From Escherichia coli (GTDB taxonomy: Bacteria; Pseudomonadota; Gammaproteobacteria; Enterobacterales; Enterobacteriaceae), in assembly GCF_003334305.1 (NCBI RefSeq), contig NZ_QOWS01000020.1: 64,000 bases of DNA; one strand, given 5' to 3'. Shown piece by piece: positions 10,353-52,788 of this stretch. Numbering within the stretch: the stretch's first letter is position 1; each line of letters opens with the position of its first letter. A program made the position numbers and the translations under genes. The notes beneath the pieces were generated by a model that did not search any database, had not been told where the DNA came from, and was given only the letters and a program-made list of their open reading frames with translations.

Positions 10353-10415
10353 CCCACCTGACTATAAATCAAAGTGAGGCTACCCTATGCCTGAACACCA
10401 TAAGGTTAGCCTCTT
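10353..10415 (-). ncRNA. sokA: candidate SokA antisense RNA (type I antitoxin), approximate bounds
   Basis: On the minus strand a 7-bp hairpin (GCCUCAC/GGUGGGGC) followed by UUUUCUCU lies just upstream of and overlapping the mok start, the position expected for Sok; the ends are inferred, not mapped. Confidence 0.35.
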
Positions 10416-10683
10416 ACTCGTTGGAAATCAACACAGGGGGCTGGGAATGCCGCAGAAATATAGATTACTTTCTTTAATAGTGATTTGTTTCACGCTTTTA
10501 TTTTTCACCTGGATGATAAGAGATTCACTGTGTGAATTGCATATTAAACAGGGGAGTTATGAGCTGGCGGCATTTTTAGCCTGCAATTTAAAAGAGTTAG
10601 AGTCTTCGGCGGGAAGTTATTCCCGCCTTTCTTACGGCGTTGCGCATTCTCATTGCACCCAAATTTATTTTTCACAAAAATAA
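10387..10683 (+). CDS. mokA: mokA-like reading frame (in-frame N-terminal extension of hok)
   Basis: ORF MPEHHKVSLLLVGNQHRGLG-MPQKYR... begins 20 codons upstream of and in frame with hok, as in chromosomal mok/hok pairs. Confidence 0.5.
   Translation: MPEHHKVSLLLVGNQHRGLGMPQKYRLLSLIVICFTLLFFTWMIRDSLCELHIKQGSYELAAFLACNLKELESSAGSYSRLSYGVAHSHCTQIYFSQK
10447..10683 (+). CDS. hokA: Hok-family type I toxin (HokA-like); frame runs 78 codons here against ~50 for canonical Hok
   Basis: MPQKYRLLSLIVICFTLLFFTWMIRDSLCELHIKQGSYELAAFLACNLKE... is a Hok family sequence; the codon after ...LKE is TTA rather than a stop and the frame continues to 10683. Confidence 0.7.
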   Translation: MPQKYRLLSLIVICFTLLFFTWMIRDSLCELHIKQGSYELAAFLACNLKELESSAGSYSRLSYGVAHSHCTQIYFSQK

Positions 10684-10724: not shown

Positions 10725-10762
10725 AACAAATAAAAAAATCCCCGCCAAATGGCAGGGATCTT
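10725..10762 (-). terminator. rho-independent terminator of cspA
   Basis: Minus-strand hairpin ATCCCTGCCATTTGGCGGGAT followed by TTTTTTT downstream of the cspA stop. Confidence 0.8.
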
Positions 10763-10786
10763 AGATTCTGTGCTTTTAAGCAGAGA

Positions 10787-10999
10787 TTACAGGCTGGTTA
10801 CGTTACCAGCTGCCGGGCCTTTAGCGCCGCTTTCGATGGTGAAGGACACTTTCTGACCTTCGTCCAGAGATTTGTAACCATCGTTCTGGATAGCAGAGAA
10901 GTGTACGAACACGTCTTTAGAGCCATCGTCAGGAGTGATGAAGCCGAAGCCTTTGTCAGCGTTGAACCATTTTACGATACCAGTCATTTTACCGGACAT
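10787..10999 (-). CDS. cspA: major cold shock protein CspA (70 aa)
   Basis: [70 protein letters not shown]. Confidence 0.98.
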
Positions 11000-11225
11000 A
11001 GTGTATTACCTTTAATAATTAAGTGTGCCTTTCGGCGATATGGCGTGCTTTACAGATTTTGAAGCGTTAAAGGAATGTGCACTACGAGGGGTATCAACGA
11101 TAACTCTTGAAGGGACTTGCCTTACTACACTGCTTTAATGGTCTGTACGTCAAACCGTTGATGTGCATTAAGCCACGCATTGGCGGGTGATGCAACAATT
11201 ATTTTTCATATTTATGATTAATCGG
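11000..11225 (-). promoter_or_regulatory. cspA promoter and ~159-nt 5-prime UTR including the cold box
   Basis: Reverse complement of 11141-11158 gives ACGGTTTGACGTACAGAC (cspA mRNA 5-prime end / cold box); upstream minus-strand TTGCAT ... CTTAAT and an AT-rich UP-like region. Confidence 0.8.
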
Positions 11226-22355: not shown

Positions 22356-22432
<77 letters not shown>

Positions 22433-22519: not shown

Positions 22520-22615
22520 GACGTAGGCCTGATAAGACGCGTCAGCGTCGCATCAGGCAACGGCACCGCACTTATTGTCGGATGCGGCGTGAACGCCTTA
22601 TTCGACCTACACGCC
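22520..22615. repeat. REP / BIME-type palindromic units
   Basis: GCCTGATAAGACGCG...CGCATCAGGC and CGGATGCGGCGTGAACGCCTTAT units typical of E. coli REP elements. Confidence 0.7.
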
Positions 22616-28895: not shown

Positions 28896-30162
28896 CAATC
28901 AGCTTCAACAGTGGCGACAAGCATAGCAAAATGCCGTACAGCAGAATCAGCCAGGCTTTAAATCCGCGAAGTTTTTCCAGTTGTGCGACTTTATAGATCA
29001 GGAAAAACGGAATGAGGCACGACACAATGCCATATAACGGGCTTCCCAACTGAAAGAACACCAGCACCGATACACGAAACGAAACCCAAATCGTCAACGT
29101 AATGACGATAAAAGCGCAGATCGCCAGAGTCAGCACGCGTGAGTTAATTTTCTTGGTATCAATAATACGGCTTAACAGATTGAGAATAATGCCTTTAATG
29201 GCCTCGTGGAAACCGAGATAAATGCCAAAGAATGCGGTCAGTACGGCAAAGATATTCAGTACCGTAGAGGTGATATGAATGATATGCCCAGGGATCACCT
29301 GCGCGGCCAGTGCCAGTGCCGAGATATTTTGTTCAAAGGCAGAAACGGCTTCTTCGTGGCTAATTGAGAAGGTAAACGAAAAGGCAAAAAACAGTATCAC
29401 CGCGATGAGCGTGACATAACTAATTCGGTGGGTACGCAGCGCGAGCCGGGTTGCCAGTACTTTATCCGCTTCCCGTTTACGATAGGCAATATTCATTGGG
29501 TTAAGTACCTGAATAAATACCGCAGAAAAGAAGCAAAAGGGAATGGTAAGCAGGACATCGTGGAAAAAGACGGAGGCTTGCGGGAAGGCGGTTATATTGG
29601 CGAAATTCCAGTGCGGGATCATCGCAAAACCGAACACGACAATAATCCCTACTTTGACCACCACCATTGGCCCAGAAATCTTAAACAGTAATCGTTCACC
29701 ACCAGACGCAATCGCCACCAGTACGGCGAAAATAGCGACTTTATAAAGTAGAGATTGTGAAAGATCGGCATCGGTTAAACCGAAGGTTTTCAGGTACGAG
29801 GCGCTGTCGAAAACCACGGAGAGAGAGTAGATAAAAATCCCGTGGATAATCATCAAAAAGTAGATAACCCCGAGGAAAATTCCCCAGTTCTTCCCCAGGT
29901 AATGACTGATAATATCGGTGTAGTCATTACAGGAATCGCTTTCAGAAAGGGTTTTTAAATAAATGTCCTGCACTACCCAAGTGGCAGGATAAGCAATGAT
30001 CGCTGCGGTAATAAATACCCAAATTCCCTTCAAGCCAATTTGTACTGGCATCAGCACGGTTCCGGCACCAATCGCCATGCCTATGCATAATAAAACCCAG
30101 CCGAAGTCGTAGCGTGTAAACGGCAATTTCTGATCGTGTTTCGGTAGTGTGTTGTGCTGCAT
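28891..30162 (-). CDS. yhjV: amino-acid transporter-like inner membrane protein YhjV (423 aa)
   Basis: Track ORF trimmed to [34 protein letters not shown]...; polytopic membrane transporter. Confidence 0.88.
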
Positions 30163-30520
30163 AAAGTCCTGTCCAGAAAGAAGTCGGCCTCGCAAAAATG
30201 AATAAACCCAGATTCTCTTGCGCAACAGGTGGAGAAGTCGAATACGCAGTATGTAAAAAATGAGGCAACAGATTCACTGGGGAGGTCGCGAGGAGGCGCA
30301 ATTCTACAAAATTGCGCATTTCACTACCAGTCTGGAGTCAGCCCGGATATGAACTGCAACTATTGCAAATTAAGAAATTAAGCTGGAAGGCATCACGCAA
30401 TGAGGAAGATTGCCGGGTGCTGACAGTAAAAAGCAATCGTAAAATCAGCGGCAAGCCGGAAGGGTTCCGGTGAGGCGCAATGTTGCGGGGGCTTTATCCC
30501 TGGTGGCATTGGTTGCTGGA

Positions 30521-30584
30521 GAGAGAAAACCCCCGCACGTTGCAGGTATGCACCTGACAACATAACGGGGGCTAATCTTGAACC
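30521..30584 (-). ncRNA. rdlD: Rdl antisense RNA (antitoxin), copy 1
   Basis: Minus-strand sequence GGUUCAAGAUUAGCCCCCGUUAUGUUGUCAGGUGCAUACCUGCAACGUGCGGGGGUUUUCUCUC ends in a GC hairpin plus U-run and matches the Rdl family as I recall it; ends approximate. Confidence 0.6.
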
Positions 30585-30637
30585 TAAACAACTCAAGAAT
30601 AGCCGCGAAACGTTGTCATTACAACACAGGCGGCTAT

Positions 30638-30745
30638 ATGACGCTCGCAGAGCTGGGCATGGCCTTCTGGCATGATTTAGCGGCTCCGGTCATTGCTGGC
30701 ATTCTTGCCAGTATGATCGTGAACTGGCTGAACAAGCGGAAGTAA
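30638..30745 (+). CDS. ldrD: Ldr small toxic peptide (35 aa), copy 1
   Basis: ATG at 30638; MTLAELGMAFWHDLAAPVIAGILASMIVNWLNKRK, Ldr family; not in the supplied ORF track (below its length cutoff). Confidence 0.85.
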   Translation: MTLAELGMAFWHDLAAPVIAGILASMIVNWLNKRK

Positions 30746-30794
30746 CGTGTCATGCGGGCGTCAGGCTGCCGTAATGGCAATTTGCGCCCGGACC

Positions 30795-30827
30795 AGGCCG
30801 CAGGGGTGAAACTCTGCGGCCTTTTTC
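30795..30827 (+). terminator. rho-independent terminator of ldr copy 1
   Basis: AGGCCGCAGGGGTGAAACTCTGCGGCCT hairpin followed by TTTTT. Confidence 0.8.
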
Positions 30828-31003
30828 GTAAGAAAAATGCAACGGTTGCAAGCGGATAATATTCTGCGGAATGCGCAGCACAGAGTGAGTAAGTGATGGA
30901 TTTCGGAACAGAAAAACAGTCGTAGAATCAGCGGCAAGCCGGAAAGGTTCCGGTAAGGCGCAATGTTGCGGGGGCTTTATCCCTGGTGGCATTGGTTGCT
31001 GGA

Positions 31004-31067
31004 GAGAGAAAACCCCCGCACGTTGCAGGTATGCACCTGACAACATAACGGGGGCTAATCTTGAACC
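31004..31067 (-). ncRNA. Rdl antisense RNA, copy 2
   Basis: Identical to copy 1 over this segment. Confidence 0.6.
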
Positions 31068-31120
31068 TAAACAACTCAAGAATAGCCGCGAAACGTTGTC
31101 ATTACAACACAGGCGGCTAT

Positions 31121-31228
31121 ATGACGCTCGCAGAGCTGGGCATGGCCTTCTGGCATGATTTAGCGGCTCCGGTCATTGCTGGCATTCTTGCCAGTATGAT
31201 CGTGAACTGGCTGAACAAGCGGAAGTAA
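31121..31228 (+). CDS. Ldr small toxic peptide (35 aa), copy 2
   Basis: ATG at 31121; identical predicted peptide to copy 1. Confidence 0.85.
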   Translation: MTLAELGMAFWHDLAAPVIAGILASMIVNWLNKRK

Positions 31229-31277
31229 CGTGTCATGCGGGCGTCAGGCTGCCGTAATGGCAATTTGCGCCCGGATC

Positions 31278-31310
31278 AGGCCGCAGAGGTTAAACTCTGC
31301 GGCCTTTTTC
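31278..31310 (+). terminator. rho-independent terminator of ldr copy 2
   Basis: AGGCCGCAGAGGTTAAACTCTGCGGCCT hairpin followed by TTTTT, abutting the bcsG stop. Confidence 0.8.
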
Positions 31311-31314
31311 GTGC

Positions 31315-32994
31315 TTACTGCGGGTAAGGCACCCAGTCGCCGCCGTTCAGGCGAACGTACGGTTTATCCTGGTATTGAATAACTACTGCATTTGAGTTCT
31401 CGGAGACCGGTGCTGTTTGTGGCAACCCACTGGTGAGTTTTTTCCAGTCAACATTGTCTTCGGTGAAAATCTTGCCATCAAGAACGCGAACCACCAGATC
31501 GGAGATAGCCAGGAAGCTGCTCGGTTGGTCAATGACAATCGGTGCCCCCTGATGTGGTGCCTTCATGCCGAAGAATTTCACCCCAACGGGGACGTCTGTG
31601 ATAGACGGGCTAGGGATATCACGTAGGCCAGATACCTGCATTCTGTCGCCCTTCAGCGCGCCGCCGTGTTCCGGCACCACGACCACCATCACTTTACGAC
31701 CCGATTTCTCCAGTTCAGTAAAGAAGGCGTCCAGTTCATCAAAGAATTTCTGCGCCCGCGCTTTGTAATCCGCTGTTTTGCTGACCCCCGGATAATGGTT
31801 GCCGTCATGCAGTGGAAGCGTGTTGTAGAACGTGGCACTACGGCTATTTTTATCTTTTTCGGTAACGTCCAGCCAGCGGTTAAGCACGGCGGTATCGTCA
31901 TAAACCGGCGAACCATCAAAGCCCAGCAAAATAACCGGCAGATTTGTTTGATCCATCAATTCAGTCTGCATGCCGCCATTTTCGCGAACTTCTTTCAAAA
32001 AACCGCCGAACTGGCCGTTATGCCCCATCATCAGGTGCTGGGTAAAGCCCAGTTTCGAAAGGTTATCAAACAGATAGCAGTCGTTATTTGCCGGTTGATA
32101 CAGATTAGTGTGCGAAGTCTGCCCGCAGCTGGCGCGCAGTAAACGGATCGCCGCCGGGCCACTGTAGGAGGTGGCGGAGTTAAAGTTCTTGAACTCAATA
32201 TCGAAATGCGACCACAGTGGATGCGACATCAACCCGGCGGCTTCTATATCCGACCAGGAAAGCGAACAGATGTTAATCACCAGTAGTTCAAATGGCTGAG
32301 CATCAGCGGGCAGCGAAGACGGGAAGGTCGATTTACGTTTCGCCTCCGCGTTATAGAAATTATTCAGCCAGGCGTTAAGGTTCGCCGTTGTTGGCGGTGC
32401 AGTTTGTGCGGGCATATCACCCACTACCGGTGCGCCACCCGTCGCCGCAACGGTTGCCGCTGCGTTACCACCCGTCGTTGTTACAGTGGTCGTCGGTTGT
32501 CCGGCTGGCCACAAGGAGAAACTTGGTCCCGCCAGGGTAAGTACGCTCAGCCATAGCAGTATGGCAACCACAAAAACGGTAATGCGAATCCATTGTGACA
32601 GGAATAACCAGGCCACTAATAAAACAAAAATGGCCCCAATCATCTGCCAGTTAATAAAGCGTGTGACAAGGTCGATTAAATAATCGGTACTGAACCCCGC
32701 CACCTGCGAACCCTGGCTCATTATGCTTTCCGGGCCAGGCAACCAGGTGTCATGCCAGAACAAAGCAAAGCCGATCGGCAGGGCAATCCAGTGGCGCAAG
32801 CGATGCAGGCTGTAGCGCGGAATGGGCATCAGCAGAAACGCGGCAAACACCAAATTGAGGAGCGGATGGAAGTTAAGATATCCCGCCCACAACAGGCCGA
32901 ACTTAACCAGAAAATAGAAGTTCCAGCCGGAAAGGCCGCGCCAGTATTGCCAGAGGGAAGAAGGCATGGCGGTATTTTGTGTAAATTGAGTCAT
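31315..32994 (-). CDS. bcsG: cellulose biosynthesis protein BcsG (559 aa)
   Basis: [42 protein letters not shown]...; N-terminal TM segments, Thr/Gly-rich linker, alkaline-phosphatase-like C-terminal domain. Confidence 0.93.
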
Positions 32995-33182
32995 TTTTTG
33001 GTTGCCCTAGCTTTTTCCGTGCGGCGTAACGTCCCGGCCGGTTTAACATAACGAGGTTTAGCAAAGAACAAACGTAAGGTGTCGCGAATGCGTCGCAAAG
33101 AGTGCCGCGCCAGATAGCCCAGCGGGAAAAATATCAGTGCGCAAACGACAATAATTTCAATGATATCGCTGATGGTCATCAT
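32991..33182 (-). CDS. bcsF: cellulose biosynthesis protein BcsF (63 aa)
   Basis: [63 protein letters not shown]; single TM; 4-bp overlaps with bcsE and bcsG. Confidence 0.9.
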
Positions 33183-34750
33183 GATGAGCGCTCCACAGCA
33201 TCATCTAACAGTCGCATGGGTTCTGGTATTCGTCGCCAGTGGCGACCATCGTGCTCGGCATTGATGACCGGTTTAGAACTTTGCGTTAAAGGCAGCGGCA
33301 TGCCCCATTGTTCTGGGGCAAGCAAGCGCATCTGCACCAGCTCGGCACTGATTTGATCATCTTCAAACCAGACCATACGGTTTGAGAAAATGTCGCCAGT
33401 AGGCAATGGGAAAATATGATTCAACGCGGTATCCAGATCGTTAATCCGACAGAATGAGAGAAACAGCACCAGCCGATTACCGCCAATGGTCATGATATCG
33501 CCGGTACGGTTAGGGCGACACAGCGTCAGGGCTTGTTCAACGCGGATACCCGGTACCGGACGTAGGGCAACCAGAACGCCTTTACCGTGGGCAGGCAAGA
33601 GAGGGTTATTCATCATGTTGTTGACGGCATTACAGAACACATCCCACTTCTGGAAACCACGCAGTTTGAGCGGCTGGGTCATTGACAGCAAGGTAGTGAT
33701 ATCTTCCGGCACATAGCGACTAAACTTCTGCCCTTGCACGCTTTCGATCATCGTCAGACAACGGGAGAGTGGCGCATTCCACGGAATAACCATATTTGCA
33801 CCGCAGGCCAATAACAAACGTTCATCGGTGGCGCGCAGGCTAGCGGTATTTTCCCGCACGAGGATTTTCATCGCACTACCGCGCTGGCGACGCAGGGTAT
33901 GAATGCTGCGGGCCAGTGGCTCGATTTGCGCATTTTGCTGTAAAGAAAAGACCACCGTCGCCGCCTGAGCGGTACGGGCTTCATTGAACAGGACTTCGTT
34001 ATTGTTGAACAGTTGCCAGTGTTCCGATAGCGGCGGCGCACCTTCCAGTACAGCAACATTACTCAGAATGCGTTTTTCGTCGCTGCGTGGTTGGATCTCC
34101 GCCTCTTCGCTTTGAACTAATGTCCAGATACCATTTTGTTGCTGAACGCTAAGCTGCTGACGGGCGCTGACCCCTTTTTCGTTGCACCAGAAGGCAATAT
34201 CCAGCAAATGTTGGTCACCCTGAAAACGCAAACTGGCAAGACCAAAAAGTGAACGGTATTCCTCAAGCAACAATGAAAATTGTTTATCGTTATTATTTCC
34301 GGGATTAATTACCAAAAGCGAACAATGGTTTAACCTGCTCCATTTATTCATTTTATCCAACCATGAGCGAAGCCGCTCGGCAGGAATGTTTTGCCATGCG
34401 TTATTTGCCCAAACAAGAATAAAAAGGTAATTATGGGGATCAATAGAACACTGCAAATCACGGGTCAAATAGTATAGACCTTTTTCATGATTTAGCATTG
34501 AAAATAATTTTATTTTTTCCGGCCCTTGAGAATCATCTAATTGAAAGATTTTCGCCGGATCGCTGTCCATGCTAATGACCGCGACGTGTGCGGTTTCAGC
34601 CTGGGATGCAATTGTTTGATTCGCCAGACTGATAGCATCTTCATGGCGATCGACGTTAAACCACCAGACGCCGCCTGCTGGCATATGTCGCAGCTCATCC
34701 CATAATGATGAGATACCGATAGAGAATACAGGGTCCACAATGTCCCTCAT
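33179..34750 (-). CDS. bcsE: cellulose biosynthesis protein BcsE (523 aa, c-di-GMP-binding GIL-domain protein)
   Basis: [32 protein letters not shown]...; first gene of bcsEFG, divergent from bcsR. Confidence 0.93.
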
Positions 34751-35022
34751 GTCACCATTTTGTCTGATTATCAGTTTACTAGCGAAAGCTAAGAAATAAA
34801 CCTACCATTGAAATTAAAACTTATCAGATTTAGCATGTGAATCAATTTAGAAGGTCACAAGACGTGTGATTTTAGTCTTTTCGTTTTTAACTTTTTCTGT
34901 TGCGTAACGGAAAGTCAAAAAGTGAGCAAATTCCCGTCTCGCCGTAAACAATAAACCGGCGAAATGCTCACGGTTAGAATTGTCTCATGAACGGTACGGT
35001 TATTTCATAGGGATCAAGCAAA

Positions 35023-35211
35023 ATGAATAACAATGAACCAGATACTCTGCCTGATCCCGCGATAGGCTATATCTTCCAGAATGATATTGTGGCGTTAAAG
35101 CAGGCATTTTCACTGCCTGATATTGATTATGCCGATATTTCCCAACGCGAACAGTTGGCCGCGGCATTAAAACGCTGGCCGTTGCTGGCAGAGTTTGCGC
35201 AACAAAAGTAG
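35023..35211 (+). CDS. bcsR: cellulose biosynthesis protein BcsR (62 aa)
   Basis: MNNNEPDTLPDPAIGYIFQNDIVALKQAFSLPDIDYADISQREQLAAALKRWPLLAEFAQQK. Confidence 0.9.
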   Translation: MNNNEPDTLPDPAIGYIFQNDIVALKQAFSLPDIDYADISQREQLAAALKRWPLLAEFAQQK

Positions 35212-35222
35212 GGGATTGGTGA

Positions 35223-35975
35223 ATGGCCGTACTGGGATTGCAGGGGGTGCGGGGAGGCGTGGGGACAACAACCATCACCGCCGCATTAGCCTGGTCATTA
35301 CAAATGTTGGGAGAAAATGTTCTGGTGGTCGATGCCTGCCCGGACAACTTGTTGCGCCTGTCATTTAATGTTGATTTTACCCACCGTCAGGGCTGGGCCA
35401 GAGCGATGCTGGATGGCCAGGACTGGCGTGACGCTGGGTTGCGCTACACCTCGCAGCTCGATTTGCTGCCTTTTGGTCAGTTATCCATTGAAGAACAAGA
35501 AAATCCACAGCACTGGCAAACCCGGCTGAGCGATATTTGCTCCGGCTTACAGCAACTAAAAGCCAGCGGGCGTTACCAGTGGATTTTAATCGACTTACCG
35601 CGTGATGCCTCGCAGATAACCCACCAGCTGCTGAGTTTGTGCGATCACTCGCTGGCAATCGTCAATGTGGATGCCAACTGCCATATCCGACTGCATCAGC
35701 AAGCGCTGCCGGATGGCGCACATATTTTGATTAATGACTTCCGTATTGGCAGTCAGGTTCAGGACGATATTTACCAGCTTTGGTTGCAAAGCCAGCGCCG
35801 ATTACTGCCGATGCTCATTCATCGTGATGAAGCGATGGCTGAATGCCTGGCGGCTAAGCAACCAGTAGGTGAATATCGCAGTGATGCGCTGGCGGCTGAA
35901 GAGATACTGACGCTGGCGAACTGGTGCCTGTTGAACTACTCCGGGCTGAAAACGCCAGTCGGGAGTGCATCATGA
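35223..35975 (+). CDS. bcsQ: cellulose biosynthesis protein BcsQ (250 aa, ParA/MinD-like ATPase), uninterrupted
   Basis: MAVLGLQGVRGGVGTTTITAALAWSLQ...; codon 6 is TTG (Leu); the frame is open for the full length. Confidence 0.92.
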   Translation: MAVLGLQGVRGGVGTTTITAALAWSLQMLGENVLVVDACPDNLLRLSFNVDFTHRQGWARAMLDGQDWRDAGLRYTSQLDLLPFGQLSIEEQENPQHWQTRLSDICSGLQQLKASGRYQWILIDLPRDASQITHQLLSLCDHSLAIVNVDANCHIRLHQQALPDGAHILINDFRIGSQVQDDIYQLWLQSQRRLLPMLIHRDEAMAECLAAKQPVGEYRSDALAAEEILTLANWCLLNYSGLKTPVGSAS

Positions 35976-38590
35976 GTATCCTGACCCGGTGGTTGCTTAT
36001 CCCGCCGGTCAACGCGCGGCTTATCGGGCGTTATCGCGATTATCGTCGTCACGGTGCGTCGGCTTTCAGCGCGACGCTCGGCTGTTTCTGGATGATCCTG
36101 GCCTGGATTTTTATTCCGCTGGAGCACCCGCGCTGGCAGCGTATTCGCGCAGAACATAAAAACCTGTATCCGCATATCAACACCTCGCGTCCGCGTCCGC
36201 TGGACCCGGTCCGTTATCTCATTCAAACATGCTGGTTACTGATCGGTGCATCGCGCAAAGAAACGCCGAAACCGCGCAGGCGGGCATTTTCAGGTCTGCA
36301 GAATATTCGTGGACGTTACCATCAATGGATGAACGAGCTGCCTGAGCGCGTTAGCCATAAAACACAGCATCTTGATGAGAAAAAAGAGCTCGGTCATTTG
36401 AGTGCCGGGGCGCGGCGGTTGATCCTCGGTATCATCGTCACCTTCTCGCTGATTCTGGCGTTAATCTGCGTTACTCAGCCGTTTAACCCGCTGGCGCAGT
36501 TTATCTTCCTGATGCTGCTGTGGGGGGTAGCGCTGATCGTACGGCGGATGCCGGGGCGCTTCTCAGCGCTAATGTTGATTGTGCTGTCGCTGACTGTTTC
36601 TTGCCGTTATATCTGGTGGCGTTACACCTCTACGCTGAACTGGGACGATCCGGTCAGCCTGGTGTGCGGGCTTATTCTGCTCTTCGCCGAAACGTACGCG
36701 TGGATTGTGCTGGTGCTCGGCTACTTCCAGGTAGTATGGCCGCTGAATCGTCAGCCGGTGCCATTGCCGAAAGATATGTCGCTGTGGCCGTCGGTGGATA
36801 TCTTTGTCCCGACTTACAACGAAGATCTCAACGTGGTGAAAAATACTATTTACGCCTCGCTGGGTATCGACTGGCCGAAAGACAAGCTGAACATCTGGAT
36901 CCTCGATGACGGCGGTAGGGAAGAGTTTCGCCAGTTTGCGCAAAACGTGGGGGTGAAATATATCGCCCGTACCACTCATGAACATGCGAAAGCGGGCAAC
37001 ATCAACAATGCGCTGAAATATGCCAAAGGCGAGTTCGTGTCGATTTTCGACTGCGACCACGTACCAACGCGATCGTTCCTGCAAATGACCATGGGCTGGT
37101 TCCTGAAAGAGAAACAGCTGGCGATGATGCAGACGCCGCACCACTTCTTCTCGCCGGACCCGTTTGAACGCAACCTGGGGCGTTTTCGTAAAACGCCGAA
37201 CGAAGGCACGCTGTTCTATGGTCTGGTGCAGGATGGCAACGATATGTGGGACGCCACTTTCTTCTGCGGTTCCTGTGCAGTAATTCGTCGCAAACCATTG
37301 GATGAAATTGGCGGTATTGCTGTCGAAACGGTAACCGAAGATGCGCACACGTCTCTGCGCCTGCACCGTCGTGGCTACACCTCTGCATATATGCGTATTC
37401 CGCAGGCGGCGGGGCTGGCGACCGAAAGTCTGTCGGCGCATATCGGTCAGCGTATTCGCTGGGCACGCGGGATGGTGCAAATCTTCCGTCTCGATAACCC
37501 GCTTACCGGTAAAGGGCTGAAATTCGCCCAGCGGCTGTGCTACGTCAACGCCATGTTCCACTTCTTGTCGGGCATTCCACGACTGATCTTCCTGACTGCG
37601 CCGCTGGCGTTCCTGCTGCTTCATGCCTACATCATCTATGCGCCAGCGTTGATGATCGCCCTGTTCGTGCTGCCGCATATGATCCATGCCAGCCTGACCA
37701 ACTCCAAGATCCAGGGCAAATATCGCCACTCTTTCTGGAGTGAAATCTACGAAACGGTGCTGGCGTGGTATATCGCACCACCGACGCTGGTGGCGCTGAT
37801 TAACCCGCACAAAGGCAAATTTAACGTCACCGCCAAAGGTGGACTGGTGGAAGAAGAGTACGTCGACTGGGTGATCTCGCGGCCCTACATCTTCCTTGTC
37901 CTGCTCAACCTGGTGGGCGTTGCGGTAGGCATCTGGCGCTACTTCTATGGCCCGCCAACCGAGATGCTCACCGTGGTCGTCAGTATGGTGTGGGTATTCT
38001 ACAACCTGATTGTTCTTGGCGGCGCAGTTGCAGTATCGGTAGAAAGCAAACAGGTACGCCGATCGCACCGCGTGGAGATGACGATGCCCGCGGCAATTGC
38101 CCGCGAAGATGGTCACCTCTTCTCGTGTACCGTTCAGGATTTCTCCGACGGTGGTTTGGGGATCAAGATCAACGGTCAGGCGCAGATTCTGGAAGGGCAG
38201 AAAGTGAATCTGTTGCTTAAACGCGGTCAGCAGGAATACGTCTTCCCGACCCAGGTGGCGCGCGTGATGGGTAATGAAGTTGGGCTGAAATTAATGCCGC
38301 TCACCACCCAGCAACATATCGATTTTGTGCAGTGTACGTTTGCCCGTGCGGATACATGGGCGCTCTGGCAGGACAGCTACCCGGAAGATAAGCCGCTGGA
38401 AAGTCTGCTGGATATTCTGAAGCTCGGCTTCCGTGGCTACCGCCATCTGGCGGAGTTTGCGCCTTCTTCGGTGAAGGGCATATTCCGTGTGCTGACTTCT
38501 CTGGTTTCCTGGGTTGTATCGTTTATTCCGCGCCGCCCGGAGCGGAGCGAAACGGCACAACCATCGGATCAGGCTTTGGCTCAACAATGA
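35972..38590 (+). CDS. bcsA: cellulose synthase catalytic subunit BcsA (872 aa)
   Basis: Track ORF trimmed to MSILTRWLLIPPVNARL...; glycosyltransferase family 2 with QRIRW motif and C-terminal PilZ domain; ATGA overlap with bcsQ. Confidence 0.95.
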   Translation: MSILTRWLLIPPVNARLIGRYRDYRRHGASAFSATLGCFWMILAWIFIPLEHPRWQRIRAEHKNLYPHINTSRPRPLDPVRYLIQTCWLLIGASRKETPKPRRRAFSGLQNIRGRYHQWMNELPERVSHKTQHLDEKKELGHLSAGARRLILGIIVTFSLILALICVTQPFNPLAQFIFLMLLWGVALIVRRMPGRFSALMLIVLSLTVSCRYIWWRYTSTLNWDDPVSLVCGLILLFAETYAWIVLVLGYFQVVWPLNRQPVPLPKDMSLWPSVDIFVPTYNEDLNVVKNTIYASLGIDWPKDKLNIWILDDGGREEFRQFAQNVGVKYIARTTHEHAKAGNINNALKYAKGEFVSIFDCDHVPTRSFLQMTMGWFLKEKQLAMMQTPHHFFSPDPFERNLGRFRKTPNEGTLFYGLVQDGNDMWDATFFCGSCAVIRRKPLDEIGGIAVETVTEDAHTSLRLHRRGYTSAYMRIPQAAGLATESLSAHIGQRIRWARGMVQIFRLDNPLTGKGLKFAQRLCYVNAMFHFLSGIPRLIFLTAPLAFLLLHAYIIYAPALMIALFVLPHMIHASLTNSKIQGKYRHSFWSEIYETVLAWYIAPPTLVALINPHKGKFNVTAKGGLVEEEYVDWVISRPYIFLVLLNLVGVAVGIWRYFYGPPTEMLTVVVSMVWVFYNLIVLGGAVAVSVESKQVRRSHRVEMTMPAAIAREDGHLFSCTVQDFSDGGLGIKINGQAQILEGQKVNLLLKRGQQEYVFPTQVARVMGNEVGLKLMPLTTQQHIDFVQCTFARADTWALWQDSYPEDKPLESLLDILKLGFRGYRHLAEFAPSSVKGIFRVLTSLVSWVVSFIPRRPERSETAQPSDQALAQQ

Positions 38591-38600
38591 TGATAACGCG

Positions 38601-40940
38601 ATGAAAAGAAAACTATTCTGGATTTGTGCAGTGGCTATGGGGATGAGTGCGTTCCCCTCTTTCATGACGCAGGCGACGCCAGCAACGCAACCACTGATCA
38701 ATGCTGAGCCAGCTGTAGCCGCCCAGACGGAACAAAATCCGCAGGTGGGGCAAGTGATGCCGGGCGTGCAGGGCGCTGATGCGCCAGTCGTGGCGCAGAA
38801 CGGTCCTTCGCGTGATGTGAAGCTGACCTTTGCGCAAATTGCGCCGCCGCCGGGCAGCATGGTGCTACGTGGCATTAACCCGAACGGCAGCATTGAGTTT
38901 GGCATGCGCAGCGATGAAGTGGTGACGAAGGCGATGCTCAACCTCGAATACACGCCATCGCCATCGTTACTGCCTGTCCAGTCGCAGTTAAAGGTTTATC
39001 TCAATGATGAGCTGATGGGCGTGCTGCCAGTGACCAAAGAACAGTTGGGTAAAAAAACGCTGGCGCAAATGCCCATTAACCCACTGTTTATTACCGACTT
39101 CAACCGTGTGCGGCTGGAGTTTGTCGGCCATTATCAGGACGTGTGCGAAAACCCGGCCAGCACCACGCTTTGGCTGGATGTTGGGCGGAGCAGTGGACTG
39201 GATCTGACCTATCAGCCCCTGAATGTGAAGAATGACCTGTCACACTTCCCGGTGCCATTCTTTGACCCGCGCGATAACCGTACTAACACCTTGCCGATGG
39301 TCTTTGCGGGTGCGCCGGATGTTGGGCTGCAACAAGCCTCTGCCATTGTCGCCTCGTGGTTTGGTTCGCGTTCTGGCTGGCGTGGGCAGAACTTCCCGGT
39401 GCTCTATAACCAACTGCCGGATCGTAATGCCATTGTCTTTGCAACCAACGACAAACGGCCGGACTTCCTGCGCGATCATCCGGCGGTAAAAGCCCCTGTG
39501 ATTGAGATGATTAACCATCCGCAGAATCCTTACGTCAAACTGCTGGTGGTGTTTGGTCGTGACGACAAAGACCTGTTGCAGGCAGCGAAAGGTATCGCTC
39601 AGGGTAACATTCTGTTCCGTGGTGAAAGCGTGGTAGTGAATGAAGTGAAACCGCTGCTACCGCGTAAGCCGTACGATGCGCCGAACTGGGTACGTACCGA
39701 TCGTCCGGTCACATTTGGCGAACTGAAAACCTATGAAGAACAGTTACAATCCAGCGGTCTTGAGCCAGCAGCGATTAACGTTTCGCTAAACCTGCCGCCG
39801 GATCTCTACCTGATGCGCAGTACCGGCATTGATATGGATATTAATTACCGCTACACCATGCCGCCGGTGAAAGACAGTTCGCGGATGGATATCAGCCTGA
39901 ATAACCAGTTCCTGCAATCCTTCAATCTGAGCAGCAAACAGGAGGCGAACCGCCTGCTGCTGCGGATTCCGGTATTACAAGGTTTGCTGGATGGCAAAAC
40001 AGATGTCTCTATTCCGGCGCTGAAACTGGGCGCGACCAACCAGCTGCGCTTCGACTTTGAGTATATGAACCCGATGCCGGGCGGTTCGGTGGATAACTGT
40101 ATTACCTTCCAGCCGGTGCAGAATCATGTGGTGATTGGTGACGACTCCACCATCGACTTCTCGAAGTATTACCACTTCATCCCGATGCCGGATCTACGCG
40201 CCTTTGCTAACGCGGGCTTCCCATTCAGCCGGATGGCGGATCTGTCGCAAACCATCACCGTGATGCCGAAAGCGCCTAACGAAGCACAGATGGAAACGTT
40301 GCTGAATACTGTTGGTTTTATCGGCGCACAGACGGGCTTCCCGGCGATTAATCTGACGGTGACCGATGATGGCAGCACCATTCAGGGCAAAGATGCCGAC
40401 ATCATGATCATCGGTGGTATCCCGGACAAACTGAAAGACGATAAGCAGATCGACCTATTGGTGCAGGCGACCGAAAGCTGGGTGAAAACACCGATGCGCC
40501 AGACCCCGTTCCCCGGCATTGTGCCGGACGAGAGCGATCGCGCGGCAGAAACCCAGTCAACGCTGACCTCTTCCGGTGCGATGGCGGCGGTGATTGGCTT
40601 CCAGTCGCCGTATAACGACCAGCGCAGCGTGATTGCGCTGCTGGCAGATAGCCCACGCGGTTATGAAATGCTTAACGATGCGGTGAACGATAGCGGCAAA
40701 CGCGCCACCATGTTCGGTTCGGTCGCGGTGATCCGCGAGTCCGGTATCAACAGCCTACGTGTTGGCGACGTTTATTACGTAGGTCATCTGCCGTGGTTCG
40801 AGCGCTTGTGGTATGCGCTGGCAAACCATCCGATTCTGCTGGCGGTGCTGGCGGCTATCAGTGTGATATTGCTGGCATGGGTACTGTGGCGTCTGCTGCG
40901 AATTATTAGTCGTCGTCGTCTTAACCCGGATAACGAGTAA
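38601..40940 (+). CDS. bcsB: cellulose synthase regulatory subunit BcsB (779 aa)
   Basis: Track ORF trimmed to MKRKLFWICAVAMGMSAFPSFMTQA (signal peptide); C-terminal TM anchor. Confidence 0.95.
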   Translation: MKRKLFWICAVAMGMSAFPSFMTQATPATQPLINAEPAVAAQTEQNPQVGQVMPGVQGADAPVVAQNGPSRDVKLTFAQIAPPPGSMVLRGINPNGSIEFGMRSDEVVTKAMLNLEYTPSPSLLPVQSQLKVYLNDELMGVLPVTKEQLGKKTLAQMPINPLFITDFNRVRLEFVGHYQDVCENPASTTLWLDVGRSSGLDLTYQPLNVKNDLSHFPVPFFDPRDNRTNTLPMVFAGAPDVGLQQASAIVASWFGSRSGWRGQNFPVLYNQLPDRNAIVFATNDKRPDFLRDHPAVKAPVIEMINHPQNPYVKLLVVFGRDDKDLLQAAKGIAQGNILFRGESVVVNEVKPLLPRKPYDAPNWVRTDRPVTFGELKTYEEQLQSSGLEPAAINVSLNLPPDLYLMRSTGIDMDINYRYTMPPVKDSSRMDISLNNQFLQSFNLSSKQEANRLLLRIPVLQGLLDGKTDVSIPALKLGATNQLRFDFEYMNPMPGGSVDNCITFQPVQNHVVIGDDSTIDFSKYYHFIPMPDLRAFANAGFPFSRMADLSQTITVMPKAPNEAQMETLLNTVGFIGAQTGFPAINLTVTDDGSTIQGKDADIMIIGGIPDKLKDDKQIDLLVQATESWVKTPMRQTPFPGIVPDESDRAAETQSTLTSSGAMAAVIGFQSPYNDQRSVIALLADSPRGYEMLNDAVNDSGKRATMFGSVAVIRESGINSLRVGDVYYVGHLPWFERLWYALANHPILLAVLAAISVILLAWVLWRLLRIISRRRLNPDNE

Positions 40941-40946
40941 TTGAAG

Positions 40947-42053
40947 ATGAATGTGTTGCGTAGTGGAATCGTGACGATGCTGCTGTTGGCTGCCTTTAGT
41001 GTTCAGGCAGCCTGTACCTGGCCTGCCTGGGAGCAGTTTAAAAAGGATTACATCAGTCAGGAAGGGCGCGTCATCGACCCCAGCGACGCGCGCAAAATCA
41101 CCACCTCCGAAGGGCAAAGTTACGGTATGTTCTTTGCCCTGGCGGCTAACGACCGTGTAGCTTTCGATAATATTCTCGACTGGACGCAGAACAATCTCGC
41201 TCAGGGTTCTTTAAAAGAACGTTTGCCCGCCTGGCTGTGGGGCAAGAAAGAGAACAGTAAGTGGGAAGTGCTGGACAGCAATTCGGCCTCCGATGGTGAT
41301 GTCTGGATGGCCTGGTCGTTGCTGGAGGCGGGGCGTTTGTGGAAAGAGCAGCGTTATACCGACATCGGCAGCGCGTTGCTAAAACGTATCGCGCGGGAGG
41401 AAGTGGTGACGGTGCCTGGGCTGGGTTCCATGTTGTTACCGGGCAAAGTGGGTTTTGCTGAGGATAACAGCTGGCGTTTTAACCCCAGCTACCTGCCGCC
41501 GACGCTGGCGCAGTATTTCACCCGCTTTGGCGCGCCGTGGACCACGCTGCGCGAAACCAATCAACGTTTATTGCTGGAAACCGCCCCGAAAGGTTTTTCG
41601 CCAGACTGGGTGCGCTATGAGAAAGACAAAGGCTGGCAGCTAAAAGCCGAAAAAACATTGATCAGCAGCTACGACGCTATCCGCGTTTACATGTGGGTAG
41701 GCATGATGCCTGACAGCGATCCGCAAAAAGCGCGGATGCTCAACCGGTTTAAACCGATGGCGACATTCACTGAGAAAAACGGTTATCCGCCGGAAAAAGT
41801 GGATGTGGCTACGGGGAAAGCGCAGGGTAAAGGACCGGTCGGTTTTTCTGCCGCCATGCTGCCCTTTTTACAAAACCGCGATGCGCAGGCCGTTCAGCGC
41901 CAGCGCGTGGCCGATAACTTTCCCGGCAGCGATGCCTATTACAACTATGTGCTGACCCTGTTTGGACAAGGCTGGGATCAACACCGTTTCCGCTTCTCGA
42001 CAAAAGGTGAGTTATTACCTGACTGGGGCCAGGAATGCGCAAATTCACACTAA
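40947..42053 (+). CDS. bcsZ: endo-1,4-beta-glucanase BcsZ (368 aa, glycoside hydrolase family 8)
   Basis: [45 protein letters not shown]... Confidence 0.94.
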
Positions 42054-45000
42054 ACATATTCACGCTTTCCCTCGGTCTGGCCGTCATGCCGATGGTCGAG
42101 GCAGCACCAACCGCTCAGCAACAGTTGCTGGAGCAAGTTCGGTTAGGCGAAGCGACCCATCGTGAAGATCTGGTGCAACAGTCGTTATATCGGCTGGAAC
42201 TTATTGATCCGAATAACCCGGACGTCGTTGCCGCCCGTTTCCGTTCTTTGTTACGTCAGGGCGATATTGATGGCGCGCAAAAACAGCTCGATCGGCTGTC
42301 GCAGTTAGCGCCGAGTTCAAATGCGTATAAATCGTCGCGGACTACGATGCTACTTTCCACGCCGGATGGTCGTCAGGCACTGCAACAGGCACGATTGCAG
42401 GCGACGACCGGTCATGCAGAAGAAGCTGTGGCGAGTTACAACAAACTGTTCAACGGTGCGCCGCCGGAAGGTGACATTGCTGTCGAGTACTGGAGTACGG
42501 TGGCGAAAATTCCGGCTCGCCGTGGCGAAGCGATTAATCAGTTAAAACGCATCAATGCGGATGCACCGGGCAATACGGGCCTGCAAAACAATCTGGCGCT
42601 ATTGCTGTTTAGTAGCGATCGGCGTGACGAAGGTTTTGCCGTCCTGGAACAGATGGCAAAATCGAACGCCGGGCGCGAAGGGGCCTCTAAAATCTGGTAC
42701 GGGCAGATTAAAGACATGCCCGTCAGTGATGCCAGTGTGTCGGCGCTGAAAAAATATCTCTCGATCTTTAGTGATGGCGATAGCGTGGCGGCTGCGCAAT
42801 CGCAACTGGCAGAACAGCAAAAACAGCTGGCCGATCCTGCTTTCCGCGCTCGTGCGCAAGGTTTAGCGGCGGTGGACTCTGGTATGGCGGGTAAAGCCAT
42901 TCCCGAACTACAACAGGCGGTGCGGGCGAACCCGAAAGACAGTGAAGCTCTGGGGGCGCTGGGCCAGGCGTATTCTCAGAAAGGCGATCGCGCCAATGCA
43001 GTGGCGAATCTGGAAAAAGCCCTCGCACTGGACCCGCACAGCAGCAACAACGACAAATGGAACAGTCTGCTGAAAGTAAACCGCTACTGGCTGGCGATCC
43101 AGCAGGGCGATGCTGCGCTGAAAGCCAATAATCCTGACCGGGCAGAACGCCTGTTCCAGCAGGCGCGTAATGTCGATAACACCGACAGTTATGCAGTGCT
43201 GGGGCTGGGCGATGTGGCGATGGCGCGAAAAGATTATTCCGCCGCCGAACGTTATTATCAGCAGACCTTGCGTATGGACAGCGGCAACACTAACGCCGTG
43301 CGCGGGCTGGCAAATATTTACCGCCAGCAATCGCCAGAAAAAGCTGAAGCGTTTATCGCCTCGCTCTCTGCCAGTCAGCGGCGTAGCATTGATGATATCG
43401 AACGCAGCCTGCAAAACGACCGTCTGGCACAGCAGGCAGAGGCACTGGAAAACCAGGGCAAATGGGCGCAGGCGGCAGCACTTCAGCGGCAACGACTGGC
43501 GCTGGACCCCGGCAGCGTATGGATTACTTACCGACTTTCGCAGGATCTCTGGCAGGCCGGACAACGCAGCCAGGCCGATACGTTAATGCGCAATCTGGCG
43601 CAGCAGAAGCCGAACGACCCGGAGCAGGTTTACGCTTACGGGCTGTACCTCTCTGGTCATGACCAGGACAGAGCGGCGCTGGCGCATATCAACAGCCTGC
43701 CGCGCGCGCAGTGGAACAGCAATATTCAGGAGCTGGTTAATCGACTGCAAAGCGATCAGGTGCTGGAAACCGCTAATCGCCTGCGAGAAAGCGGCAAAGA
43801 AGCTGAAGCGGAAGCGATGCTGCGTCAGCAACCACCTTCCACGCGTATTGACCTCACGCTGGCTGACTGGGCGCAGCAGCGACGTGATTACACCGCCGCC
43901 CGCGCTGCATATCAGAATGTCCTGACGCGGGAGCCAACTAACGCCGATGCCATTCTGGGGCTGACGGAAGTGGATATTGCTGCCGGTGACACAGCGGCGG
44001 CACGTAGCCAGCTGGCGAAACTGCCCGCTACCGATAACGCCTCGCTGAACACACAGCGGCGCGTGGCGCTGGCGCAGGCGCAGCTTGGAGATACCGCAGC
44101 GGCGCAGCAGACGTTTAATAAGTTGATCCCGCAGGCAAAATCTCAGCCACCGTCGATGGAAAGCGCGATGGTGCTGCGCGACGGTGCGAAGTTTGAAGCG
44201 CAGGCGGGCGATCCAAAGCAGGCGCTGGAAACCTACAAAGACGCCATGGTCGCATCCGGTGTGACTACGACGCGTCCGCAGGATAACGACACATTCACCC
44301 GACTGACCCGTAACGACGAGAAAGATGACTGGCTGAAACGCGGCGTGCGCAGCGATGCGGCGGACCTCTATCGCCAGCAGGATCTTAACGTCACCCTTGA
44401 GCACGATTACTGGGGTTCGAGCGGCACCGGTGGTTACTCCGATCTGAAAGCGCACACTACCATGTTGCAGGTGGATGCGCCGTATTCTGACGGGCGGATG
44501 TTCTTTCGCAGTGATTTCGTCAATATGAACGTCGGCAGTTTCTCCACTAATGCCGATGGCAAATGGGATGACAACTGGGGCACCTGTACATTACAGGACT
44601 GTAGCGGCAACCGCAGCCAGTCGGATTCCGGTGCCAGCGTGGCGGTCGGCTGGCGAAATGACGTCTGGAGCTGGGATATCGGTACCACGCCGATGGGCTT
44701 CAACGTGGTGGATGTGGTCGGCGGCATCAGTTACAGCGATGATATCGGGCCGCTGGGTTACACCGTTAACGCCCACCGTCGGCCCATCTCCAGTTCTTTG
44801 CTGGCCTTTGGTGGGCAAAAAGACTCCCCGAGCAATACCGGGAAAAAATGGGGTGGCGTACGTGCCGACGGTGTGGGGCTAAGTCTGAGCTACGATAAAG
44901 GTGAAGCAAACGGCGTCTGGGCATCGCTTAGTGGCGACCAGTTAACCGGTAAAAATGTCGAAGATAACTGGCGCGTGCGCTGGATGACGGGCTATTACTA

Positions 45001-45508
45001 TAAGGTCATTAACCAGAACAATCGCCGCGTCACAATCGGCCTGAACAACATGATCTGGCATTACGACAAAGATCTGAGTGGCTACTCACTCGGTCAGGGC
45101 GGTTACTACAGTCCGCAGGAATACCTGTCGTTTGCCATACCGGTGATGTGGCGGGAGCGCACGGAAAACTGGTCGTGGGAGCTGGGGGCGTCTGGCTCGT
45201 GGTCGCATTCACGCACCAAAACCATGCCGCGTTATCCGCTGATGAATCTGATCCCGACCGACTGGCAGGAAGAAGCTGCGCGGCAATCCAACGATGGCGG
45301 CAGCAGTCAGGGCTTCGGCTACACGGCGCGGGCATTACTTGAACGACGTGTTACTTCCAACTGGTTTGTTGGCACGGCAATTGATATCCAGCAGGCGAAA
45401 GATTACGCACCCAGCCATTTCCTGCTCTACGTACGTTATTCCGCCGCCGGATGGCAGGGTGACATGGATTTACCGCCGCAGCCGCTGATACCTTACGCCG
45501 ACTGGTAA
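42035..45508 (+). CDS. bcsC: cellulose synthase outer-membrane subunit BcsC (1157 aa; TPR repeats plus C-terminal beta-barrel)
   Basis: Signal peptide, long TPR-rich region, C-terminal porin-like domain; 19-bp overlap with bcsZ. Confidence 0.95.
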
Positions 45509-45589: not shown

Positions 45590-47578
45590 TTGCGCGTAAG
45601 TCGCTCGTTAACAATCAAGCAGATGGCAATGGTGGCAGCCGTTGTCCTGGTGTTCGTTTTTATTTTTTGCACCGTTTTGCTGTTCCATCTGGTCCAGCAG
45701 AATCGCTATAACACGGCTACGCAACTGGAAAGCATTGCTCGCTCTGTCCGCGAACCCTTATCTTCAGCTATTTTGAAAGGCGATATTCCCGAAGCGGAAG
45801 CTATTCTTGCCAGCATTAAACCGGCAGGCGTGGTCAGCCGTGCCGATGTAGTGCTGCCTAACCAGTTCCAGGCGCTGCGTAAAAGTTTTATTCCAGAGCG
45901 CCCGGTGCCGGTAATGGTTACTCGCCTGTTTGAGCTACCGGTTCAAATCTCGCTGGGCGTTTACTCGCTCGAACGTCCGGCAAACCCGCAGCCAATTGCC
46001 TATCTGGTACTACAGGCGGATTCCTTCCGTATGTATAAGTTCGTGATGAGCACCCTCTCAACGTTAGTGACCATTTACTTACTTTTGTCGCTTATCCTGA
46101 CCGTCGCCATCAGCTGGTGCATTAACCGCCTGATTTTGCATCCGTTACGCAATATTGCTCGCGAACTTAACGCCATCCCAGCCCAGGAGCTTGTTGGTCA
46201 CCAACTGGCATTACCGCGTCTGCATCAGGACGATGAAATCGGTATGTTGGTGCGCAGTTACAACCTCAACCAGCAATTGCTGCAGCGCCATTATGAAGAA
46301 CAGAACGAAAATGCGATGCGCTTCCCGGTGTCGGATTTGCCGAACAAAGCCTTGCTGATGGAGATGCTGGAGCAGGTTGTCGCGCGTAAACAAACCACCG
46401 CGCTGATGATCATCACCTGTGAAACCCTGCGTGATACTGCGGGCGTGCTGAAAGAGGCGCAACGAGAAATTCTGCTGCTGACGCTGGTGGAAAAACTCAA
46501 ATCGGTACTGTCGCCACGTATGATCCTCGCGCAGATTAGCGGTTATGACTTTGCTGTCATTGCCAACGGTGTACAGGAACCGTGGCACGCAATCACCTTA
46601 GGTCAGCAAGTGCTCACTATCATGAGCGAGCGCCTGCCGATTGAACGTATTCAACTCCGTCCGCACTGTAGCATTGGCGTGGCGATGTTCTACGGCGATC
46701 TCACCGCCGAACAGCTTTACAGTCGCGCTATTTCTGCGGCATTTACCGCTCGCCATAAAGGCAAGAATCAGATTCAGTTCTTTGATCCGCAGCAGATGGA
46801 AGCCGCCCAGAAGCGGTTGACGGAAGAGAGTGATATCCTTAATGCACTGGAAAATCATCAGTTTGCTATTTGGTTACAGCCACAGGTCGAGATGACCAGC
46901 GGAAAACTGGTCAGTGCGGAAGTGTTACTGCGTATCCAGCAACCGGATGGCAGTTGGGACCTGCCGGATGGCTTAATCGATCGCATTGAGTGCTGTGGGC
47001 TGATGGTTACCGTCGGTCACTGGGTGCTGGAAGAGTCCTGTCGATTGCTTGCAGCCTGGCAAGAGCGCGGCATTATGCTGCCCTTGTCGGTAAACCTCTC
47101 TGCGCTGCAACTGATGCACCCAAATATGGTGGCGGATATGCTGGAACTGTTAACCCGCTATCGCATTCAGCCGGGAACACTGATTCTGGAAGTGACAGAA
47201 AGCCGACGTATTGACGACCCTCATGCTGCGGTGGCAATCCTCCGTCCGCTGCGCAATGCCGGAGTTCGGGTGGCGCTGGATGATTTCGGCATGGGCTACG
47301 CAGGGCTGCGTCAGCTGCAGCATATGAAATCGTTGCCAATCGACGTACTGAAAATCGACAAAATGTTTGTTGCAGGCTTGCCGGAAGATAGCAGCATGAT
47401 TGCTGCAATTATCATGCTGGCGCAGAGCCTGAACTTACAAATGATTGCCGAAGGCGTGGAGACTGAAGCACAACGCGACTGGCTGGCAAAAGCGGGCGTT
47501 GGTATTGCCCAGGGCTTCCTTTTTGCTCGCCCACTCCCTATTGAAATCTTCGAAGAGAGTTACCTGGAAGAAAAGTAG
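45590..47578 (+). CDS. pdeK: c-di-GMP phosphodiesterase PdeK (membrane HAMP-GGDEF-like-EAL protein)
   Basis: Track ORF begins at a TTG (662 aa); in-frame ATG codons at 45623 and 45629 are alternative starts; C-terminal EAL domain ends ...[18 protein letters not shown]. Confidence 0.85.
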
Positions 47579-52020: not shown

Positions 52021-52788
52021 ATGATAAGGCAGGTTATCCAGCGAATAAGCAACCCTGAAGCAAGCATCGAGAGCTTGCAGGAACGGCGTTTTTGGTTGCA
52101 GTGTGAGCGTGCTTACACCTGGCAGCCGATCTATCAAACATGCGGACGGTTAATGGCCGTGGAGCTATTAACGGTGGTCACGCATCCCTTGAACCCTTCG
52201 CAACGCCTGCCGCCGGATCGCTATTTTACTGAAATCACCGTCAGCCATCGGATGGAGGTTGTGAAAGAGCAGATTGATTTGCTGGCGCAAAAAGCCGACT
52301 TCTTTATAGAGCACGGCCTGCTGGCATCGGTCAATATTGATGGCCCTACGCTCATCGCCCTGCGTCAGCAACCAAAAATCCTGCGCCAGATTGAGCGTCT
52401 TCCCTGGCTGCGTTTCGAACTGGTGGAGCATATCCGTCTGCCGAAAGATTCAACCTTTGCCTCGATGTGTGAATTTGGCCCGCTGTGGCTGGATGATTTT
52501 GGTACCGGGATGGCAAATTTCTCTGCACTAAGTGAAGTGCGTTATGACTACATCAAAATCGCGCGAGAACTGTTTGTGATGCTGCGTCAGTCGCCGGAAG
52601 GACGCACACTCTTTTCTCAGCTTTTACATCTAATGAATCGCTATTGTCGCGGGGTGATTGTCGAGGGCGTAGAAACGCCGGAAGAGTGGCGTGATGTTCA
52701 GAACTCGCCCGCATTCGCCGCACAAGGCTGGTTTCTTTCACGCCCGGCACCGATAGAAACGCTGAATACGGCGGTTCTGGCGCTATAA
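52021..52788 (+). CDS. pdeH: c-di-GMP phosphodiesterase PdeH (EAL domain, 255 aa)
   Basis: Track ORF trimmed to MIRQVIQRISNPEASIESLQERRFWLQCERAYTWQPIYQ...; stand-alone EAL domain. Confidence 0.92.
   Translation: MIRQVIQRISNPEASIESLQERRFWLQCERAYTWQPIYQTCGRLMAVELLTVVTHPLNPSQRLPPDRYFTEITVSHRMEVVKEQIDLLAQKADFFIEHGLLASVNIDGPTLIALRQQPKILRQIERLPWLRFELVEHIRLPKDSTFASMCEFGPLWLDDFGTGMANFSALSEVRYDYIKIARELFVMLRQSPEGRTLFSQLLHLMNRYCRGVIVEGVETPEEWRDVQNSPAFAAQGWFLSRPAPIETLNTAVLAL

Follow-up and report, generated by a model that had tools for sequence, protein, structure and literature searches.

An uninterrupted cellulose secretion (bcs) locus with a full-length bcsQ in an Escherichia coli genome matching the natural isolate A7

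Organization of the bcs locus

We analysed a 64,000-nucleotide stretch of Escherichia coli DNA, referred to here as the window, which contains bcs genes in the order bcsRQABZC together with a divergent bcsEFG cluster. The gene bcsQ (positions 35223–35975, plus strand) runs from ATG to TGA over 250 codons and encodes a 250-residue ATPase of the MinD/ParA-like (SIMIBI) type that belongs to the cellulose secretion system. It is preceded on the plus strand by bcsR (yhjR, 35023–35211), which codes for a small BcsQ partner of 62 residues (NF040717, 75 bits, cut-off 46), and followed by four further genes on the same strand. The first of these, bcsA (35972–38590), encodes the catalytic cellulose synthase with its PilZ domain (872 residues; NF008558, 1794 bits, cut-off 992, match over residues 1–872). 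The periplasmic co-polymerase subunit is encoded by bcsB (38601–40940; 779 residues; NF008325, 1385 bits, cut-off 922, residues 1–779), and a periplasmic GH8 endoglucanase by bcsZ (40947–42053; 368 residues; NF008305, 595 bits, cut-off 299). The series ends with bcsC (42035–45508), the gene for an exporter composed of TPR repeats and an outer-membrane β-barrel (1157 residues; NF008520, 2201 bits, cut-off 858, residues 1–1157).

The three divergent genes are located on the minus strand. They comprise bcsE (33179–34750), coding for a c-di-GMP-binding GIL-domain protein (523 residues; NF011619, 1185 bits, cut-off 929, residues 1–523), bcsF (32991–33182), coding for a small membrane protein (63 residues; TIGR03493, 116 bits, cut-off 56), and bcsG (31315–32994), coding for a phosphoethanolamine transferase that modifies cellulose (559 residues; TIGR03368, 819 bits, cut-off 410). 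Between bcsE and bcsR lies a divergent intergenic control region of 272 bp (34751–35022). A consensus scan of this region for sigma-70 promoters and terminators resulted in scores not above the shuffled expectation.

All nine Bcs products match their curated NCBIfam equivalog models from end to end and score above the cut-offs. Compared with E. coli K-12 MG1655, the nine genes have equal lengths and the same start and stop codons, contain no internal stop and are arranged colinearly; their order also agrees with the annotation of E. coli A7. Neighbouring genes are closely spaced: ATGA overlaps connect bcsQ with bcsA, bcsE with bcsF and bcsF with bcsG, the overlap of bcsZ and bcsC amounts to 19 bp, and the remaining gaps are 11 nt (bcsR–bcsQ), 10 nt (bcsA–bcsB) and 6 nt (bcsB–bcsZ). 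The lengths, the stop scan and the junctions bear out the original prediction of nine full-length genes with tight or overlapping junctions. Judged by their sequences, the nine reading frames are real genes and not chance ORFs.

The residues expected to be functionally important are retained. BcsA contains DCD360, TED455, FFCGS430 and QRIRW493 in the GT2 domain as well as RRSHR696 and DFSDGG723 in the PilZ domain; we take the GT2 motifs DxD, TED and QxxRW and the PilZ c-di-GMP motifs RxxxR and DxSxxG to be family-defining. BcsE carries RTGD415, which presumably represents the RxGD motif of the GIL domain. Also present are Ser278 of BcsG as well as Glu55 and Asp243 of BcsZ, all three of which we assume to be catalytic.

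Two genes for c-di-GMP phosphodiesterases are found in the window. One of them, pdeH (yhjH, 52021–52788, plus strand), is intact, encodes 255 residues and is located 6.5 kb downstream of bcsC; PdeH is a major phosphodiesterase restraining the curli/cellulose cascade. The other, pdeK (hmsP/yhjK, 45590–47578, plus strand), adjoins the operon and is likewise intact, encoding a membrane-bound c-di-GMP phosphodiesterase of 662 residues that matches its equivalog model above the cut-off and from end to end (NF008807, 781 bits). PdeK has been connected with the control of cellulose synthase (PMC7397504). Elsewhere in the window, an Rfam search identified a sok antitoxin RNA (10298–10449, plus strand) beside a hokA remnant that is annotated as partial in A7, the cspA thermoregulator 5'UTR (10732–11159, minus strand), a tRNA (22356–22429, plus strand; annotated as tRNA-Pro in A7) and naRNA4 (22526–22607, minus strand).

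The bcsQ reading frame

The first six codons of bcsQ read ATG GCC GTA CTG GGA TTG, so that codon 6 specifies leucine. In a gene-by-gene comparison with MG1655 (NC_000913.3) the corresponding codons are ATG GCC GTA CTG GGA TAG, and bcsQ (b3534) is annotated there as a pseudogene. Only two nucleotides of the gene differ from K-12, namely position 17 (A in K-12, T in the window) and the silent position 99. The encoded protein matches the NCBIfam equivalog NF007460 over residues 1–250 of 250 with 543 bits (cut-off 399) and is identical in 248 of 250 residues to crystallized E. coli BcsQ (PDB-entries 6YBU and 6YAR). Its N-terminal glycine-rich loop, a deviant Walker A motif within residues 1–17 (MAVLGLQGVRGGVGTTT), is kept, and exactly the same protein is found on at least 1000 contigs.

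These data agree with what had been read from the window beforehand, a TTG codon at position 6 of bcsQ, and with what had been stated for K-12, a premature TAG at the same place. The latter is evident from the MG1655 sequence and is documented in the literature: the K-12 stop corresponds to a TTG/TAG exchange (17T>A), and its repair brought back cellulose production in W3110 (PMC5944007). The same study considered that the stop could act either via the loss of BcsQ or via polarity on neighbouring genes. Strain AR3110 is W3110 with codon 6 of bcsQ changed from TAG to TTG and is thereby cellulose-proficient (PMC7397504, PMC5014196). Both the mutation and the repair were published as early as 2013 and are routinely cited.

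Relationship to K-12, A7 and sibling genomes

Over the whole bcs locus, 117 of 14,194 nucleotides differ from MG1655, 47 of them in bcsA. The locus is, on the other hand, 100% identical to that of E. coli A7 (NZ_CP028767.1), an isolate from orangutan faeces in the USA, in which PGAP annotates all nine bcs genes as intact coding sequences. The agreement with A7 extends across the window, with no mismatches in positions 1–30400 and 31313–64000. By this match, the source is the A7 clone or a sibling of it.

The sole difference between the window and A7 is one 483-bp unit of an Ldr/Rdl type I toxin-antitoxin repeat (30423–31312) situated beside bcsG. The window contains two copies of this unit, with ldr reading frames at 30638–30745 and 31121–31228 on the plus strand and rdlD at 30524–30589 and 31007–31072 on the minus strand. 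MG1655 possesses one copy (ldrD/rdlD) and the A7 record three. Either the copy number truly varies, or the repeat may have collapsed in one of the assemblies. The repeat was found by a blastn self-comparison; Tandem Repeats Finder reported no repeat in 29500–31800, because fewer than two full copies are present. The varying copy number also explains why the best matches in a 22-kb search reached only 99.6% identity. An unusual or recombinant segment, considered on account of that search, is ruled out, for the match to A7 is perfect once the repeat is omitted.

As the window carries two copies and the RefSeq record of A7 three, the resolution of the repeat evidently varies between sequence versions. 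One could suspect on these grounds that the integrity of the bcs genes is itself an assembly artefact, for instance because polishing of the consensus had masked a genuine frameshift or IS insertion. We regard this as highly improbable. The window and A7 disagree only in the tandem repeat of 483-bp units, which does not touch the bcs genes, and the bcs locus is the same in both sequences. Furthermore, the locus deviates by only 3–4 SNPs from the independent genomes TUM12355 and NCTC9088, and all nine genes are open there, too.

A readable bcsQ could also be encountered in a K-12 derivative, either one with a repaired gene such as AR3110, whose codon 6 is likewise TTG (PMC7397504), or one that received wild-type bcsQ by P1 transduction. 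In favour of such an origin, bcsR has no nucleotide difference from K-12 and encodes an identical protein, and the 272-bp bcsE–bcsR intergenic region shows no difference from either MG1655 or A7. This identity with K-12 means that the same control region drives cellulose production in AR3110. The 117 SNPs, however, including the 47 in bcsA, rule out a repaired K-12 strain of the AR3110 type. The two ldr/rdl units, compared with one in MG1655, are a further discrepancy, and the 63.5 kb outside the repeat in which the window and the wild isolate A7 agree at every base span far more than a repaired point mutation. Nor do the flanking 50 kb match MG1655. Descent from K-12 is thereby refuted for either route. 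The claim that the source is not a K-12 derivative is thus upheld by the divergence from MG1655, the number of ldr/rdl units and the identity with A7.

Taken together, we consider it about 96% probable that the window contains the ancestral, wild-type type II cellulose secretion locus of E. coli (bcsRQABZC with divergent bcsEFG and flanked by pdeK) from a natural isolate clonally identical to A7. The contrast with K-12 exists only because the K-12 lineage acquired the derived change of bcsQ codon 6 from TTG to TAG. Nothing has been gained in the bcs locus described here; it is the K-12 state that is derived.

Frequency of the intact allele

Alleles were typed with 81-nt probes centred on the codon-6 SNP, for which a single mismatch takes a genome out of the 99% identity band. 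Of the 5,248 complete E. coli genomes containing the region, 3,544 had the exact TTG allele of the window and 348 the exact TAG allele of K-12; the roughly 1,350 genomes outside these two groups vary elsewhere in the probe and provide no call for codon 6. Among the 60 matches listed, the TAG carriers that can be recognized by name are K-12 laboratory strains, including MG1655, C600, J53, DH5alpha, DH1, HMS174, RV308 and NCM3722. The 14.2-kb bcs locus was covered to at least 80% in 5,286 of 5,426 genomes. By these counts, E. coli normally has both bcsQ and the surrounding locus intact, and K-12 is the exception. What we describe is already known as the wild-type condition of a thoroughly characterized locus, and its value is mostly one of annotation: the window belongs to a natural isolate and not to K-12, and the species-typical machinery for phosphoethanolamine (pEtN) cellulose is kept.

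Two further observations were made during these searches. In the complete E. coli genomes NZ_CP086391.1 and NZ_CP024155.1 the match to positions 34751–36100 falls into two parts, and an IS1 element is annotated within bcsR–bcsQ–bcsA; the operon was probably disrupted there independently and in nature. A query with the bcs locus (31315–45508) yielded 135 further matches on E. coli plasmids. Together with a plasmid-encoded, BcsC-like fragment having 74% identity to BcsC residues ~330–470, these matches hint at plasmid-borne bcs-like clusters or fragments.

Private substitutions in BcsA and BcsC

Compared with the closest sibling, TUM12355, the locus contains three SNPs private to the A7 clone, which are also private with respect to NCTC9088. 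They are located at position 36182 (bcsA codon 71, A71T), position 43238 (bcsC codon 402, P402S) and position 33009 (bcsF codon 58, silent). The exchange A71T is the sole difference between the BcsA protein of the window and that of K-12. Owing to these two private substitutions the alleles are rare: the exact BcsA sequence was found on 7 contigs and the exact BcsC sequence on 5, compared with 556 (BcsB) to more than 1000 contigs for the other seven Bcs proteins.

In alignments of homologues from Enterobacteriaceae, position 71 of BcsA is occupied by Ala, Pro or Thr and position 402 of BcsC by Pro, Asp, Ala or Ser. Because both columns vary within the family, a disabling effect of either substitution is unlikely. 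Two non-synonymous changes among three private SNPs in 14 kb are about what would be expected from neutral drift, and the SNP density relative to TUM12355 is similar in the flanking DNA.

Proposed mechanism and cellulose proficiency

Based on the gene content and on the known biology of Bcs systems we propose the following mode of action. A readable bcsQ would allow BcsQ to be made, a MinD/ParA-like ATPase presumably paired with BcsR and BcsE, and the three proteins would assemble and regulate the BcsAB synthase. Ribosomes that terminate on bcsQ would probably re-initiate at bcsA via the ATGA overlap, so that the downstream genes could be translated without polarity. A stop near the start of bcsQ, like that of K-12, would abolish BcsQ and probably lower downstream expression as well. 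DgcC, acting under the control of CsgD, would supply the c-di-GMP that activates BcsA via the PilZ domain and binds to BcsE. BcsG would then attach phosphoethanolamine to the cellulose, with BcsC serving as the exporter. In this scheme the locus is predicted to be genetically competent for pEtN-cellulose production whenever RpoS, MlrA, CsgD and DgcC provide c-di-GMP.

Cellulose production also requires RpoS, MlrA, CsgD and DgcC, all of which are encoded beyond the window. The original prediction had called the source strain cellulose-proficient, and this holds for the genotype, which is permissive with all nine genes intact; the step to the phenotype goes too far, as an intact locus is necessary and not sufficient, and the strain is better called "genetically competent". 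The strains BL21 and H10407 contain bcs genes free of stops and are nevertheless calcofluor-negative (PMC5944007). Because of such published counter-examples, open bcs reading frames should not be called "cellulose-positive" unless a phenotype accompanies them.

The genome of A7 was used to inspect the regulators. Its rpoS (330 residues), adrA/dgcC (371 residues), mlrA and csgD (NZ_CP028767.1, positions 1969778–1970428; 216 residues) are all uninterrupted. CsgD of A7 is a rare allele found on 13 contigs and is distinguished by the substitution D113N. Residue 113 is aspartate in every full-length member from E. coli, Shigella and Salmonella that was examined. The intergenic region between csgD and csgB differs from K-12 at seven positions.

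It is therefore conceivable that the locus is intact and the strain still forms no cellulose under standard conditions, be it due to regulation, for example through CsgD D113N or variants of the csgD promoter, or to a lowered output caused by A71T or P402S. The precedent of BL21 and H10407 speaks for this possibility, as do the rare D113N exchange in CsgD, where the examined members from E. coli to Salmonella all have aspartate, the seven differences between csgD and csgB and the rarity of the BcsA and BcsC alleles. These points have to be weighed against the variability of both substituted columns, the complete set of catalytic, PilZ and GIL motifs, the intact rpoS, mlrA and dgcC genes with low-numbered WP_ accessions, and a pattern of private SNPs that fits neutral drift at a density similar to that of the flanks. 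We judge a non-producing strain to be a serious, though the less probable, outcome, and would expect cellulose production under standard rdar conditions with a chance of roughly two in three.

One may go further and regard BcsA A71T, BcsC P402S and CsgD D113N together as an early step of attenuation or re-tuning of the matrix in a primate-gut lineage, comparable to the convergent losses in ST95. Such a step seems improbable to us; if it did occur, D113N of CsgD would be the candidate for the causal change.

Comparison with known systems

The preferred reading, an ancestral locus from a natural isolate, can be placed among several characterized systems. The K-12 strains MG1655 and W3110 share the architecture and all gene lengths with the window; they carry TAG at codon 6 of bcsQ and are cellulose-negative, in contrast to the TTG codon found here. 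Apart from BcsA, the proteins of the window differ from K-12 by few, conservative substitutions in BcsB, BcsC, BcsZ, BcsE and BcsG.

A genome of E. coli O104:H4 is 100% identical to positions 34751–36100 of the window, covering bcsR–bcsQ. The cellulose synthase operon (yhjR–bcsQABZC) of the 2011 O104:H4 outbreak strain is reported to be intact, with the same sequence as in related enteroaggregative strains that produce cellulose; the outbreak strain is cellulose-negative because of a +1 frameshift at codon 448 of bcsE (PMC4287979). It exemplifies the loss of production through one lesion elsewhere in the locus. This frameshift is absent from the window, where bcsE is of full length and includes RTGD415. 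Extraintestinal pathogenic E. coli of ST95 possess the same locus and exemplify how natural lineages often inactivate it. The lesions behind repeated losses in this group include a frameshift at residue 186 of BcsA, W55*, Q178* in BcsQ and a frameshift at residue 418 of BcsG (PMC10881479). Stops or frameshifts of the ST95 type were not observed in the gene-by-gene comparison of the nine bcs genes of the window.

The closest relatives are the type II Bcs systems of E. coli 1094 and AR3110, which make pEtN-cellulose. Both strains are proven cellulose producers, whereas genetic competence is predicted for the strain of the window. BcsA of the window deviates by one residue from the protein shared by K-12 and AR3110, and codon 6 of bcsQ is TTG in AR3110 as it is in the window. 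With 1094 and AR3110 the window has in common the gene content, the gene order, the divergent layout and the overlaps between adjacent genes.
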